Below, one piece after another: positions 9,716-45,188 of a stretch of DNA of 64,000 bases. A program made the translations under genes and the position numbers. How positions within the stretch are numbered: the stretch's first letter is position 1; each line of letters opens with the position of its first letter. Under the pieces are notes generated by a model that saw only the letters and a program-made list of their open reading frames with translations, made no database searches and was not told the origin of the DNA. This stretch comes from a virus (taxonomy: Duplodnaviria; Heunggongvirae; Uroviricota; Caudoviricetes), in the IMG/VR virus record IMGVR_UViG_3300028797_000097; one strand, 5' to 3'.

Positions 9716-12700
9716 TTATTGAAATGACCATGTACTTGTTGAAGCATCCCAATGTAAATCACCTTGACCCATCGCAGTAGTAAGGAAATCAAATAGCTTA
9801 CCAAGCATGCTATTAGGATCAGCTTTATATGTTTTTGCGGAAACTGTACCATCAGCAGAAACAATCATTGCATTTGATAATTCTACAACATTTGGATTTT
9901 CAATATCTGCATAATTTACCTTATTACAATTTGGGTCAGATACATCATGATTTGCACCACTAAAGAAATAACCGTCATATTCATATGCTTTAAGGCGACC
10001 ATTACCAATAGCAAATATTATACCACTATTTGGTATTGCTACCATCTCATCATTAATCCAAGCAGATGTAGTTCTTACACAACCATCTACTTTTTGGTTA
10101 TACTGACCCATAATAGTTTGATGCTGATTTGCTTTTAAGTATGCGCCAATAGTTGTGGAATGATGTCCTCTATTAACGTTACCTATACCCATACCAATCT
10201 GACAAGAACCGCTTAAACCATTATTATAAGTACCAATTAAAATATTATTACTATAATAAAGGTCACTATCACTAAATAATGTATTTCTATCACCAATTAA
10301 TACATTAGAATTATATTTTTTAGAAACACCATTGAGAACACCAAACATATAGTTTCTATCATTATGATCACTAGTATGTCCTAGTATATTTCCATGATCT
10401 GTAATACCAAATAATGTACCTGATTTAGTTGCACCAAAATAGTTATCAGTACCAATAATAGCATTATCAGTAGTAGTACCAGCAGATGTTTTAATATAGT
10501 TATTAGCACCATATACGAAGTTACGGTCTAATCTGTTATTAGTTGGTGGGACAGTAATTTCTAATCTATTACCTACACCATAAACGAAGTTTCTACTTGC
10601 ATTATTACTGTCTGTAGTTAAGTGCGCAGTTTCTGAGCCTAAATAACCAACACTATTCATTTCACCTATAACATAGGTTCCAATTGAATTTTGAAGAGTA
10701 TTACCAATACCACAGAGTAAGCATTCACAAAGATATTTAGCAATAAAGTCTCCATAGATAAATGAACGGTTTGTATACATAGCAACAGAATCGCTAAGGT
10801 CATTATAAGTATCGGTTTCATGCATATTACCAAAAATATAAGTTTCATTGGTATTATATGCAGCTCCTTTAAATATTATATTATTTTTTAAGCATTGAGT
10901 AGCGCCATTTAAGCTAGAACAAAAATTATTCGGTTTATCTGCTCTATAATATCCTTTGAATAAGAAGTTTTCTGTGGTATATCTGTTATTTGCTGAAAGG
11001 ACAGAACCGAATAATACATTTTGTGTAAATACTGAATTAACTTGTTTTTCAGTATCAAATGTAGCAGTAACTTGTGAATTAATTATAATATTATCAGCTA
11101 GATATTCAACACCAGAGAAACTTAAAGTATCACAGTTTTCAGAACCTTGAGAATTTAAGAAGATATTTTCGGTGAAATATCCCTGTGCAAATGTTGGTGC
11201 ATATGCTTTCAAGTCAGTATTATGAAGAATATTAGCATTAGCTATACAAAAATGATCAATTTCAACTTTTCTGGAATTAAACATTATATTTTTACTAAAT
11301 GAACCATTAAAATAAGGCCAACCAATATGTTTATGTAATATTATCTCACCATCATTACCAAGACTTTCCAGATTATATAGGAAGTTATACTCAATATTAC
11401 CTTCTTCTGCAGAGAATGTATCAGGAAAATCTACACCATGAGCATAGTTTCCGTGTATTGTGGTTGCATATATAGATGTTGATCTGATATATTGTAAATC
11501 ATAAAGTTTGTTATCATCAAATGAATGTGAAAATATATTTACAGAACCATTTGCATGATTTATAATATTATTTGTTCCATAAGTTGAAATAAGTTTAAAA
11601 TTACCAGGACTACCAACATTTTCAAAGTAATTATTATATAATGAACCACTTAATTCAAACCTACCGCCACCACCGGCAACATGTTTAACGGTATTACGAT
11701 TAAACTCACCACCACCTGAAATAGTTACATTAGAGACATCGTAAAATTCGTTTCCAATAATTCCTGGCGATCCTTCATTGTAGTTTCTTATATATTTTAC
11801 TCCACGAGCATGAGTAAAATCATTATCTTGAAATGGCATTTCAACAAATTGATTACCATAATAAGTGCTACGAATATTGCCGTAATCTATTTTTACTGTA
11901 GCATTAGTAAATTCATTGTGTTCAAAACCATACTTATACCAATCATCTGGTTTATTAACACCAACAATAGTAGAAAAATATATTTTATTAAGACCTACAC
12001 CAGCATCAGAATGACCAAGTGAAAAGTCATAGCCAGAAAAAAGTGATAAAAATGCAATATTATTATGGCCATCAATACGCGAACGAATATTGAAATTTTG
12101 ATAACCGATACTTCTAGTGTCAAATTTTACCGTATTACTATAATCTGGCAAATAATAATTATTTGCATTTAAGTTAGTAACACCTATTACGATATTTTCA
12201 CCACCAGATGCTAATACTCCTTTACCAATTGCAATATCATAGTTACGAATAGCAGAGTTTTCAAGACCAAATGCTAATGTAAAACCATCGTTATTCTGGC
12301 TAGTACTATCTAATTCCAAATCACTTTGTGTGGTTTCGGAATAGTTTTTAGAACCGAAAATGAAAGCGTTTCTTGTAGTGTTGGCAGAGTTATCGTTACC
12401 AACAATAAAATTCTGCGTATTATAAACTTTTGTATTATTGTCTTTAATTAATTTATCAGTGCTTTTAGATTCATTACCATTACCAATAATGATAGAATTA
12501 CCATGTGCGGAGTTACCAGAACCAATATAGTAATTATTATCGCCTTCTATATCAGTATCATGATCTTCAGACCAGTTTTTCCAGCTATTGCTGGCACCTT
12601 CAAGATCTTGCAATAATTCTATAATTTTATCATCACGATTCTTTAACGGTCCAATTGTATTTGCTTGTAACCAGTTACCATCAGCAACGGTATTTCTATC

Positions 12701-12760
12701 CCAGCTTGAAACTGGCAATTCCTCATTAAATTCTTCTACGGTAGGTATATTAGTTGCCAT
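9716..12760 (-). CDS. Large beta-helix repeat tail fibre / tailspike-like protein (1014 aa)
   Basis: Long N/G/S/Y-rich degenerate repeats typical of beta-helical fibre proteins. Late promoter TATAAATA lies 25 nt upstream. Confidence 0.55.
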   Translation of the reverse strand: MATNIPTVEEFNEELPVSSWDRNTVADGNWLQANTIGPLKNRDDKIIELLQDLEGASNSWKNWSEDHDTDIEGDNNYYIGSGNSAHGNSIIIGNGNESKSTDKLIKDNNTKVYNTQNFIVGNDNSANTTRNAFIFGSKNYSETTQSDLELDSTSQNNDGFTLAFGLENSAIRNYDIAIGKGVLASGGENIVIGVTNLNANNYYLPDYSNTVKFDTRSIGYQNFNIRSRIDGHNNIAFLSLFSGYDFSLGHSDAGVGLNKIYFSTIVGVNKPDDWYKYGFEHNEFTNATVKIDYGNIRSTYYGNQFVEMPFQDNDFTHARGVKYIRNYNEGSPGIIGNEFYDVSNVTISGGGEFNRNTVKHVAGGGGRFELSGSLYNNYFENVGSPGNFKLISTYGTNNIINHANGSVNIFSHSFDDNKLYDLQYIRSTSIYATTIHGNYAHGVDFPDTFSAEEGNIEYNFLYNLESLGNDGEIILHKHIGWPYFNGSFSKNIMFNSRKVEIDHFCIANANILHNTDLKAYAPTFAQGYFTENIFLNSQGSENCDTLSFSGVEYLADNIIINSQVTATFDTEKQVNSVFTQNVLFGSVLSANNRYTTENFLFKGYYRADKPNNFCSSLNGATQCLKNNIIFKGAAYNTNETYIFGNMHETDTYNDLSDSVAMYTNRSFIYGDFIAKYLCECLLCGIGNTLQNSIGTYVIGEMNSVGYLGSETAHLTTDSNNASRNFVYGVGNRLEITVPPTNNRLDRNFVYGANNYIKTSAGTTTDNAIIGTDNYFGATKSGTLFGITDHGNILGHTSDHNDRNYMFGVLNGVSKKYNSNVLIGDRNTLFSDSDLYYSNNILIGTYNNGLSGSCQIGMGIGNVNRGHHSTTIGAYLKANQHQTIMGQYNQKVDGCVRTTSAWINDEMVAIPNSGIIFAIGNGRLKAYEYDGYFFSGANHDVSDPNCNKVNYADIENPNVVELSNAMIVSADGTVSAKTYKADPNSMLGKLFDFLTTAMGQGDLHWDASTSTWSFQ

Positions 12761-12785
12761 ATTAAGTCCTTTTTTAATCTTATCT

Positions 12786-12793
12786 TATTTATA
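12786..12793 (-). promoter_or_regulatory. T4-type late promoter TATAAATA (minus strand) upstream of the 1014-aa fibre gene
   Basis: Exact motif 25 nt upstream of the start at 12760. Confidence 0.45.
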
Positions 12794-12889
12794 ATATTTT
12801 CTGGACATTATAAAATATTATTTTAAAGAAATTTCAGAATTTATTTAAAATAAGTTTACAAAATTCTATAAACCTTTTATATTTGTTTC

Positions 12890-13200
12890 ATATTTTTTAC
12901 ATTAAAGTCCTATTACTGGCTCGGAGTTCAACTCAATGAATTGTCGGATAAGTTTAGGCTAGTTGGAATCATAGGTGTGGTTCCAGGTAAAAACTAATTC
13001 ACCATCGACGTATTACTATAGCATGTAATACTTTAAGCCGCCATTGGTATTGAAAGATGTAGCTGGAGTACAGGATGACCGACCCATAAGCTTTCAAATA
13101 AATCCACTTAGTCGAAGACAGATGATCTTTTGCCTATTTTCCTAAATAGGCTTATTGTCTCAGAACAGATATTTTGAACGTGTGTGTAGATAAGTTTAAT
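12890..13200. other. ORF-free region of about 300 bp with visibly elevated GC and several hairpins. Candidate structured RNA (sRNA, tRNA-like or intron remnant).
   Basis: No ORF of 60 aa or more. The region reads as GC-richer than its surroundings (estimated about 45% against a genome-typical 32%). It contains a perfect 8-bp stem gcctattt/aaataggc and a ggtg...cacc hairpin. Confidence 0.25.
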
Positions 13201-13211
13201 ATAAATAATAT

Positions 13212-13682
13212 ATGAATTTTAAAGATTATGTAGATAAACACTTAGATTTATTAAATGAGGTCAAAGGTATTGATTTAATCAATAATTTTAAAAAAGTATT
13301 CCCATTTTCTAAGGAAAGTAATCTTACAGTAAAGCATTTTAATATAAAAGGTGAAGATACTGATACATTAGAAGCTACTGGTACAGTTTCTTCAGAATCT
13401 GAACCAGGTAATTCATATGTTTGTATGGCAAAATTTCATAGAGAAAATAATGAATTGCCATTTTCTTTACAAAATATGTGTAAAGTTTCTTGTAATTGTA
13501 ATGCTTATAGATATAATTTAAGCCATCCAAATTCCAAGAATTCTTCTCAAGCAGAGCCTATTCCAGGATATGCAAGTATAGCTAACACAGTAAGAAACCC
13601 GGATAAAAATGTAGGTGTTTGCAAACATTTATATGCATTTCTGCACTTTTTATATGAAAAAGGAATTATAAGAAATAACTAG
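13212..13682 (+). CDS. Cys/His-rich protein with a SWIM-like CxC...CxH motif
   Basis: VSCNCNAY ... VCKHLYAF. The spacer is longer than in a canonical SWIM domain. Confidence 0.35.
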   Translation: MNFKDYVDKHLDLLNEVKGIDLINNFKKVFPFSKESNLTVKHFNIKGEDTDTLEATGTVSSESEPGNSYVCMAKFHRENNELPFSLQNMCKVSCNCNAYRYNLSHPNSKNSSQAEPIPGYASIANTVRNPDKNVGVCKHLYAFLHFLYEKGIIRNN

Positions 13683-14022: not shown

Positions 14023-14059
14023 AACGTATTGTTTACATAGCAATACGTTTTTCTATATT
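14023..14059 (+). promoter_or_regulatory. Composite terminator hairpin plus sigma70-type promoter (TTTACA-N16-TATATT)
   Basis: Stem aacgtattg/caatacgtt with the -35 element in the loop, then a T-run and CTATATTT. The -10 ends 7 nt before ATG 14067. Confidence 0.5.
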
Positions 14060-14066
14060 TGTAAAT

Positions 14067-16019: not shown

Positions 16020-16051
16020 TTATATGATATAATATAAATAGAATAAAAAAT

Positions 16052-44724: not shown

Positions 44725-44915
44725 TTGGAATCTTACTGTTACTATGTGGCATGTCATTTGCATGTTCACCCTTCTTCACTTCTGAATTTTGTAAGGAGAT
44801 AGATTTCTGGAATACTCAGTATTCTAGTTATCATTACAAATATTTTGAAATTTCTCCTAACTGGCTACTCTGGATTAACGGTTATCAAGCGTTTAATTTC
44901 ACGATTCGTTTCTAA
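44712..44915 (+). CDS. Small secreted or lipoprotein-like protein (67 aa)
   Basis: Signal-like N-terminus MQRIIGILLLLCGMSFAC. Confidence 0.3.
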   Translation: MQRIIGILLLLCGMSFACSPFFTSEFCKEIDFWNTQYSSYHYKYFEISPNWLLWINGYQAFNFTIRF

Positions 44916-44938
44916 ATAAAAATTTACAAATTAATTTA

Positions 44939-44968
44939 AACTATGCAAAATTTTGCATAGTTTTTTTT
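44939..44968 (+). terminator. Rho-independent terminator (aactatgcaa/ttgcatagtt) plus T8
   Basis: Perfect 10-bp stem followed by a T-run. Confidence 0.6.
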
Positions 44969-45188
44969 ATATTTGATATGAAATTTGTAACGTAAAAAAT
45001 AATAAATAATTATATTTGTCGGTTGAAGTTTATGTTAAATCTTAGTGAAAAAATTTCTCAAAAATGTAGCTTTAAAATAGTAAAGGCTACATTTTTCATT
45101 GTGCTATAAATATAAAACCGATAAAGAAAATGAAAGTTATTAGTGTTGTGAATTAAATGTTTATTGAGCGTTTATAAAGAGGAAATAG

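Follow-up and report, generated by a model that had tools for sequence, protein, structure and literature searches.

An extended cow-rumen-2 RNA gene with a predicted promoter of its own in distant T4-like phages of ruminant gut communities

A 64,000-nucleotide (nt) stretch of the IMG/VR virus record IMGVR_UViG_3300028797_000097 (Caudoviricetes; the whole stretch is called the window below) holds at 12761-13211 a gap of 451 bp in which a credible open reading frame (ORF) is absent, bounded on the left by the start of a 1014-aa ORF (9716-12760, minus strand) and on the right by a 156-aa ORF (13212-13682, plus strand), and we asked what this gap contains. An earlier note on this DNA had described an ORF-free, GC-rich island at 12800-13210 as a candidate structured RNA and had suggested a comparison with the Rfam covariance models. 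That comparison (cmscan) returned a match to the cow-rumen-2 family (RF02947) at 13004-13110 of the plus strand, which covers positions 1-106 of the 106-position model without truncation (102.8 bits, E = 1e-18) and exceeds the family's gathering score of 66 bits (Rfam 15 curated thresholds). RF02947 was the sole family above threshold in the entire 64 kb, and a permissive search of 12600-13400 (E <= 10) gave nothing but noise besides cow-rumen-2. The above-threshold, full-length match and the covariation seen in relatives bear out the structured-RNA proposal, and the typing of the family as 'Gene; sRNA' in Rfam agrees with the small RNA (sRNA) among the options that had been listed. We conclude with very high confidence that the island, which as first delimited encloses the entire element, is the gene for a structured non-coding RNA, an extended member of the cow-rumen-2 family.

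Every feature that marks RF02947 is present in the window: the score, the 7-bp 5' hairpin with its UAGCA loop followed by the AGCCGCCA linker, the long stem with the AUGUAGC/UAAG internal loop, and the apical ACAGGAUGACC (Table 1). Both main stems of this core covary strongly, with double changes in 14-16 of 25 sequences at several pairs of the long stem. Occurrence in the ruminant gut is found as well, the copies described below coming from contigs of goat-gut metagenome-assembled genomes (MAGs), IMG/VR viral contigs and JGI metagenome contigs, the last counted provisionally. Cow-rumen-2 is reportedly an orphan motif from the comparative genomics of metagenomes by Weinberg et al. in 2017, and to our knowledge it has been known only from cow-rumen metagenomes, with neither an organism nor a function attached to it. 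In the literature searched, the name appears solely in the Rfam 15 papers, as that of a family whose structure was refined using R-scape, and it does not occur in the portion of PMC5737381 covered here, which excludes the supplement. The family itself is known, though functionally orphan, and the element is not new in kind; as far as checked, what is newly found for cow-rumen-2 is the assignment to phages, the predicted promoter and a multi-copy, larger, pseudoknotted architecture. The Rfam model corresponds to the middle third of the conserved unit and lacks the 5' domain, the pseudoknot, the multi-branch domain, the 3' domain and the promoter, and the present assignment of the family is to T4-like and jumbo phages, in which a genome bin holds as many as three copies.

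When the apical motif was used as an exact pattern, 26 IMG/VR viral contigs were retrieved, some of them 210-424 kb long; 24 of the 26 passed the Rfam threshold, and no other RNA families were found around the copies on these contigs. Pattern scans of bacterial genomes and metagenomes, which used TAGCNGGNNNACAGGATGACC, gave mostly chance matches in high-GC bacteria, and only pattern matches confirmed by nhmmer were kept. The nhmmer profile, built from 13 representatives from promoter to tail and searched against 264 fetched loci, recovered 65 true copies (55 of them distinct) at E values down to 1e-98, and it aligned to 12840-13199 of the window with E = 4e-78. In the flanks of the relatives, conservation visibly exceeds the 106-nt motif on both sides; the unit measures about 290 nt in the window and 300-370 nt in relatives, nearly three times the length of the Rfam motif. 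No reading frame is conserved, the longest frame inside the gap being at most 33 aa and stops or frame breaks occurring in all frames across the lineages, which upholds the description of the island as free of ORFs.

These results bear on the view that the gap holds no functional element and is a degraded ORF, or a divergent promoter region whose composition arose by chance. Two or three promoters do lie in the region and the folding energy is unremarkable, as this view would have it; the covariance-model match, the compensatory changes, the lack of a conserved frame and a conservation, to the E values given above, among phages that are unalignable by nucleotide BLAST outside the RNA contradict it. 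It is already refuted, and we allow it essentially no probability.

In the 5' domain, 95.8% of the alignment cells of the 15 base pairs are paired, compared with 78.5% in shuffles, and 51 cells carry double changes where 12.0 are expected, a result that none of 500 shuffles reached; controls with slid partners were paired at 30-42%. The multi-branch domain that follows is variable, its closing helix P3 enclosing one hairpin in the window and two or three in relatives. P3 forms with at least 4 bp in all 18 distinct lineage combinations, and with at least 5 bp in 61% of cognate combinations versus 18% of non-cognate ones. The loop of hairpin P3a pairs with the linker before the core, and for this pseudoknot 11 compensating pairings were read, namely GGUG/CACC in the window and ten others elsewhere (GAAC/GUUC, GGG/CCC, AAUCG/CGAUU, ACUGUA/UACAGU, GUUCG/CGAAC, AUUAG/CUAAU, ACUCC/GGAGU, GCUCC/GGAGC, GAUGC/GCAUC and AGUG/CACU); at least four contiguous base pairs are possible in 16 of 18 cognate loop/linker pairs versus 12% of 304 non-cognate ones. 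The earlier note had read ggtg...cacc as a hairpin, and the pairing is real, though it forms a pseudoknot; its second hairpin, gcctattt/aaataggc, is found as described (hairpin B) and is conserved in relatives. The plus strand is fixed by the G-U pairs that occur in the covarying stems. Two further candidates, a helix AUCGAC/GUCGAA closing the core and a GUCGGU/ACCGAC contact between the 5' domain and the apical hairpin, were rejected as inconsistent across lineages, and a generic scan for conserved complementarity recovered the known helices and was too noisy to add new ones.

In the 3' domain the pairing of hairpin B is kept through G-U pairs and one U-A to C-G exchange, and a U-tract after this hairpin is missing in most relatives. 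Counted over the RNA, about 45 near-invariant nucleotides lie in loops and junctions. Hairpin B is flanked by a pair of matched direct-repeat words (ACAGAU in the window) that change together between lineages: ACGGAAUAU occurs twice in locus L001, GCAGGU twice in L156, and others carry CCAAAAG, CUAAAAG, AGCAAAAGA or GAAAAAGA, each twice. One 6-mer repeat alone is not significant; the word shared between head and tail has a mean length of 7.2 nt in cognate and 5.4 nt in non-cognate combinations, and reaches at least 7 nt in 61% versus 14%. A search for the complement of the matched words, within the RNA and in the window, gave no consistent partner.

Table 1. Predicted cow-rumen-2 RNA gene and adjoining promoter motifs; positions are those of the window.
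Feature	Position	Strand	Basis or remark
Predicted promoter of the RNA: GTTTAC (12854-12859), 18-nt spacer, TATATTTG (12878-12885)	12854-12885	+	consensus scan and alignment
Predicted RNA, about 290 nt	12899-13186	+	nhmmer profile and conserved blocks; both ends inferred
5' domain, not in the Rfam model	12904-12959	+	RNAalifold, column-pair scan, covariation test
P1a	12909-12913/12954-12958	+	RNAalifold; many double changes in P1
P1b	12915-12917/12951-12953	+	RNAalifold; stacked on P1a
P2, invariant	12922-12924/12944-12946	+	RNAalifold
5'-domain hairpin, conserved loop AACUCAAU (consensus CAAYYCAAUG)	12927-12929/12938-12940	+	column-pair scan
Variable multi-branch domain and pseudoknot	12960-13003	+	lineage comparison
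P3, UAGUU/AACUA	12960-12964/12992-12996	+	several pairing sequences across lineages
Hairpin P3a	12965-12971/12978-12984	+	
Pseudoknot, P3a loop GGUG with linker CACC	12974-12977/13000-13003	+	cognate versus non-cognate test
Core (Rfam cow-rumen-2 motif)	13004-13110	+	cmscan, RF02947
Core hairpin, 7 bp, UAGCA-type loop UAUAGCAU	13010-13016/13025-13031	+	covaries, columns 175-181/190-196
Single-stranded AGCCGCCA	13036-13043	+	RF02947 feature
Long core stem	13050-13056/13091-13097	+	covaries
Internal loop AUGUAGC / UAAG	13057-13063 / 13087-13090	+	RF02947 feature
Apical ACAGGAUGACC	13070-13080	+	RF02947 feature
Conserved 3' domain	13111-13186	+	conservation past the Rfam model
Hairpin A, AAGA/UCUU	13115-13118/13126-13129	+	by eye
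Matched words ACAGAU	13118-13123 and 13165-13170	+	flank hairpin B
Hairpin B, loop UCCU	13132-13139/13144-13151	+	conserved in relatives
UUAUUGUCUC	13152-13161	+	follows hairpin B
Conserved tail AUAUUUUGAACGUG	to ~13183	+	candidate RNA tail or part of the next promoter
TATAAATA motif before the 156-aa ORF, outside the RNA	13200-13207	+	T4 late-promoter type
TATAAATA motif before the divergent 1014-aa fibre-like gene	12786-12793	-	ORF start 12760

A promoter is predicted directly ahead of the RNA. The best site of a consensus scan in 12500-13500 was TTTACA-17-TATATT, with 10 of 12 matches, and in an alignment of 29 sequences the second promoter element recurs at the same place with the consensus tAtaTTTg. 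In about half of the rows the upstream element reads TTTAC or nearly so, and in several others a terminator-like hairpin overlaps its position; such hairpins lie directly upstream of the promoter in several relatives, as judged by eye. The distance from the promoter to the 5' domain is near-fixed across relatives, and a conserved ACAT sits a few bases before the first conserved block of the RNA. GTTTAC is the consensus of the T4 early -35 element, and TAnnTTTG that of the -7 element of Bacteroidota. Because of this double resemblance we infer early transcription by the host RNA polymerase from a promoter of host type, and the host may possibly belong to the Bacteroidota. Sites of the form TTTAC-N16-19-TAnnTTTG number three in the 64 kb, versus 0.85 expected. 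The other two lie at 14032-14066 (plus strand), where the ATG of a DHH phosphoesterase gene (14067) follows the motif by 5 nt with a spacing suggestive of a nearly leaderless messenger RNA (mRNA), and at 62793 (minus strand), where an ATG, a candidate start codon, stands 17 nt past the motif. The 5' end of the RNA is predicted near the ACAT at 12899-12902, although it could lie upstream to about 12890; the 3' end is placed tentatively at 13161 or beyond, with conservation to about 13186.

Late-type signals surround the RNA gene. TATAAATA has 27 sites in the window, many of them directly 5' of ORF starts, and both genes flanking the gap carry it just upstream as a motif of T4 late-promoter type, although those on the right had been labelled 'early' in the earlier note. 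Further examples are found at 16033 (plus strand) and 15964 (minus strand), and the motif precedes the UvsW gene as well as the genes so labelled. In several relatives TATAAATA or TATAGATA follows the RNA, and in the window a sigma-70-like TTGAAC (13174-13179)-17-TAATAT overlaps the area of the RNA tail and the motif at 13200.

The composition of the gap agrees with this arrangement. The GC content peaks at 0.395 in 12900-13099 (200-nt windows), with 0.215-0.31 on either side, and is 0.387 in the RNA body (12905-13165) compared with 0.139 at 12761-12904 and 0.217 at 13166-13211, as the description of a GC-rich island had it. Against the whole-window mean of 0.325 (standard deviation 0.049), the rise is large relative to intergenic DNA and modest relative to coding DNA, since 10.7% of 261-nt windows reach the GC content of the RNA body. 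The minus-strand TATAAATA explains why the gap is rich in AT on its left side, and two gene promoters together with an RNA gene that has its own predicted promoter explain the whole 451 bp.

The RNA is carried by phages from ruminant gut communities, namely jumbo phages and distant T4-like ones, as indicated by their T4-type proteins. The window codes for UvsW, a UvsX recombinase, a gp41-type helicase and a baseplate-wedge-like protein, and among the products of related loci are a neck protein, a baseplate hub protein, gp46/47-like nuclease subunits and a gp23 fragment. The closest cultured relatives are only 28-30% identical in UvsX, and no match to the gap was found by blastn among 50,697 records of cultured phages. 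Two IMG/VR viral contigs match the window with 99.6-99.7% identity, and parts of two contigs with a Methanobrevibacter binning match it with 93-96% identity except within the fibre gene. The exception spans 9877-12463, the N-terminal ~85% of the 1014-aa fibre-like ORF, which does not align with the otherwise 93-96% identical L127 and L135 and is 99.6% identical in L016 and L023; from its alignment pattern it looks like a swapped or hypervariable receptor-binding region. Loci on goat-gut contigs with the Methanobrevibacter label are L051, L065, L127, L135 and L145, and these contigs are probably mis-binned phage DNA, given their T4-type proteins and bacterial-type promoters.

More than one copy may be present per genome. 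Two copies lie about 61 kb apart on each of JAFRFB010000097.1 and JAFQXD010000042.1 (173 kb and 191 kb). A copy of a third type, which has diverged further, is found on JAFQXD010000097.1, another contig of the same bin. With 61 kb between copies, a second one would fall outside the window, in agreement with the single Rfam match there. The paralogues vary in peripheral hairpins and keep the core. In copies of the L009/L156 type, which stand by gp46/47-like genes, an unrelated GC-rich sequence replaces the 5' domain, which makes the RNA modular; this variant domain lies about 150 nt upstream of the core in L009, L156, L145, L163, L191 and similar loci. The gp46/47-like (SbcC/SbcD-like) genes are the commonest neighbours (13 of 36 loci).

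How such an RNA acts can be approached from its neighbourhood and from the distribution of its invariant positions. The downstream genes differ by locus: a SWIM-like ORF is found in the window and, elsewhere, a gene for a baseplate protein, genes of unknown product or convergent genes. Since they are unrelated between loci, an action in trans is favoured over one in cis. In L011 and L206, which have a convergent gene next to the RNA, the conserved blocks end in front of a clean intrinsic terminator, which argues that the RNA is a complete unit there. The invariant nucleotides are spread over loops and junctions and form no contiguous seed, and no antisense targets of the conserved loops were found in the window, which together favour action through the fold, as does the retention of the core in paralogues whose peripheral hairpins differ. 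We therefore consider it fairly probable, taking the explanation as a whole, that the RNA is transcribed early and acts free-standing and in trans through its fold, with moderate to low confidence in the trans, fold-dependent mechanism as such. Host RNA polymerase would transcribe it early in infection, and the transcript would adopt a compact tertiary structure and work as a free molecule, with the invariant AGCCGCCA, AUGUAGC/UAAG, ACAGGAUGACC, CAAYYCAAUG and UUCCU...AUAGGCU binding a conserved partner that may be a host protein, a phage protein or another copy of the RNA. Base-pairing with a target mRNA would not be involved, and the several genomic copies could raise the dosage of the RNA.

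A number of observations weigh against this explanation. The promoter assignment rests on resemblance to consensus sequences, and both ends of the RNA as well as the timing of its expression are predictions. The folding energy of 12885-13165 is not above that of shuffled sequence (minimum free energy z-score -0.56), so that the support for structure is comparative, not energetic; of the 'stable hairpins' claimed by the earlier note, both pairings exist and the stability of the overall fold does not exceed that of shuffles. Classical covariation is sparse in the 3' domain, which carries in addition the pair of matched direct-repeat words. No protein family is adjacent to the RNA in all contexts. 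Finally, no terminator lies between the RNA and the next co-oriented gene in the window or in most loci, which means that the RNA could stand at the head of a longer early transcript.

The last point leads to the possibility that the RNA is a cis-acting 5' element of such a transcript, be it a put-like antiterminator, a 5' stabiliser or a read-through leader. Its near-fixed distance behind the promoter would fit, as would the co-oriented next ORF 20-60 nt away in most loci, with no terminator before it in the window, and the several copies per genome, each heading a transcription unit. The put RNAs of phage HK022 are likewise structured RNAs found directly past two early promoters, in more than one copy per genome and with co-oriented genes downstream. 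They are, however, only about 70 nt long with two stem-loops compared with about 290 nt here, and known antiterminator RNAs in general are much smaller and less conserved than this one. Furthermore, a convergent gene comes next in at least four of the lineages (L011/L206, L169, L239 and L179/L221), and in L011/L206 nothing downstream is left to control, as the gene is convergent and a terminator follows the RNA; the downstream genes share no function, and a TATAAATA promoter of their own often intervenes. We regard a cis-acting role as less likely, and on balance rather doubtful. A riboswitch or cis-regulatory leader was rejected on the unrelated or convergent downstream genes and on hairpin B, which is without a U-tract in most relatives.

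If the RNA is a free molecule, it could also be catalytic or self-assembling, a ribozyme or an RNA-only homo-oligomer rather than a protein-binding sRNA. With its 290-370 nt, multi-way junctions, pseudoknot and near-invariant loop and junction nucleotides it resembles RNAs of complex fold, and an analogy may be drawn with GOLLD, ROOL and OLE. ROOL and GOLLD are phage- or prophage-associated RNAs, usually found near tRNA genes, and share with the window RNA a complex fold with multi-way junctions and pseudoknots. They differ in having no sequence or model similarity to it in Rfam, in the tRNA genes nearby, of which ARAGORN finds none in the window, and in length, ROOL (581 nt on average) being about twice as long. 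According to PMC12286853, GOLLD, ROOL and OLE form homo-oligomeric RNA-only complexes, among them the oligomeric cages of ROOL and GOLLD; ROOL, for its part, was first seen in cow rumen data (PMC5737381). No known ribozyme family in Rfam is matched, and no cleavage or ligation site can be named. A catalytic or self-assembling RNA is unlikely in our judgement, and we give the same limited credence to the wider proposal that the extended cow-rumen-2 RNA represents a new large class of phage RNA with a biochemistry of its own (ribozyme or self-assembling RNA-only particle), expressed early from up to three diverged copies per bin. In a more speculative variant, suggested by analogy with telomerase RNA or the DRT2 non-coding RNA, the stretch of 47-74 nt that the matched words enclose, with hairpin B, might serve as a reiterated template or realignment unit.

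The position of the locus raises a further alternative, in which the RNA is the transcript of a replication origin, a promoter-driven R-loop priming the leading strand, and its copies mark multiple origins. The GC-skew analysis that the earlier note had suggested placed the cumulative skew minimum of the window at the RNA locus, which is at the same time a switch of gene orientation, and a promoter and an AT-rich downstream stretch are present, neither being a specific feature. Origins of phage T4 lie at uvsY and inside the fibre gene 34; the neighbours here are a fibre gene and UvsW, and relatives have gp46/47-like genes and a weak UvsY-like match (PHROGs, E = 8.5e-5; L022 11308-11973, minus strand, divergent from the RNA promoter). 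T4 oriF (uvsY), oriG (gene 34) and oriE are thus alike in combining a promoter-driven untranslated transcript with a divergence or skew-switch point, in occurring several times per genome and in lying near fibre and recombination genes. T4 origins are found near divergence points, oriF and oriG consisting of a promoter and an AT-rich unwinding element and oriE depending on an early promoter and having iterons (PMC3016281). In L185 iteron-like tandem repeats directly follow the RNA: about six 11-nt repeats, GTTAATAGATT / GTTAATAAGAT, lie roughly 140-210 nt downstream of the ACAGGATGACC motif of this locus. However, R-loop formation at T4 origins is independent of specific sequence (PMC3016281), and the T4 origin RNAs have no conserved sequence or fold, unlike the window RNA, which is defined by its fold and keeps it through many compensatory changes. 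The skew minimum is confounded with the switch in transcription direction, and other copies, of the L001/L258 type, lie between co-oriented genes. An origin transcript is accordingly less likely still, an improbable reading of the locus; more speculative again is the idea that an R-loop of the RNA might load replication and late-transcription machinery beside the late promoters that follow.

The remaining options of the earlier note concern known RNA types, for which T4-like phages offer some precedent in that they often carry tRNAs and small stable RNAs. For a tRNA-like element, the ARAGORN run proposed there found no tRNA or transfer-messenger RNA genes in the window, and 12600-13400 gave no match to the tRNA clan at E <= 10. 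A group I or II intron is contradicted by the lack of any interrupted gene, the RNA lying between divergent genes, and of any Rfam match at E <= 10. A retron msr/msd has no Rfam match either, and Pfam and PHROGs reveal no reverse transcriptase in the neighbouring ORFs of the window or in the scanned representative ORFs of L001, L022, L156 and L258; neither the intron nor the retron remnant is thus sustained. RNase P RNA was suggested by the 5' AAAGUCC and 3' GGCUUA, which by eye resemble the strands of helix P4. It gave no Rfam match even at E <= 10, and the P4-like helix was rejected, as the 5' CCUA pairs locally and covaries with UAGG (CAUA/UAUG, CUAA/UUAG, CUCA/UGAG) while the 3' GGCU is fixed; a short AAGYC/GGCUU contact is possible. 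The stable RNAs C and D of T4 are similar in being phage-encoded, without assigned function and part of a T4-type genome, and differ in lying in a tRNA cluster, in being shorter (139 and 119 nt) and in showing no detectable homology, cmscan of the T4 rnaC/rnaD region returning no cow-rumen-2 match at E <= 10. As a group, these identities have a negligible probability.

For cow-rumen-2, one of many orphan structured RNAs known as short metagenomic motifs, the locus provides carriers, namely phages of the ruminant gut that are jumbo or distantly T4-like. It adds a gene organisation with a predicted host-type promoter and as many as three paralogues in a genome bin, and a fuller architecture of about 290-370 nt in which the pseudoknot is well supported and the 5' domains are interchangeable. 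The family moves with this from a 'small RNA motif' towards the large complex-fold phage RNAs such as ROOL and GOLLD, and the full-length unit makes the RNA open to assays of structure, oligomerisation and activity in vitro and to look-up in metatranscriptomes.

The 156-aa ORF downstream of the RNA carries a CxC...CxH pattern (SCNCNAYRY...GVCKHLY) like that of a SWIM zinc finger, and has no Pfam or PHROGs match. The RNA gap is not, as had been thought, the only sizeable region of the window without a credible ORF, since a second ORF-poor gap of 464 bp lies at 44725-45188, with a GC content of 0.256. No Rfam match was found in this second gap, which contains a terminator-like hairpin aaactatgcaaaattttgcatagttttttt, TATATTTG motifs and one TATAAATA, and beside it, at about 44713, starts a short ORF with a lipoprotein-like signal sequence.

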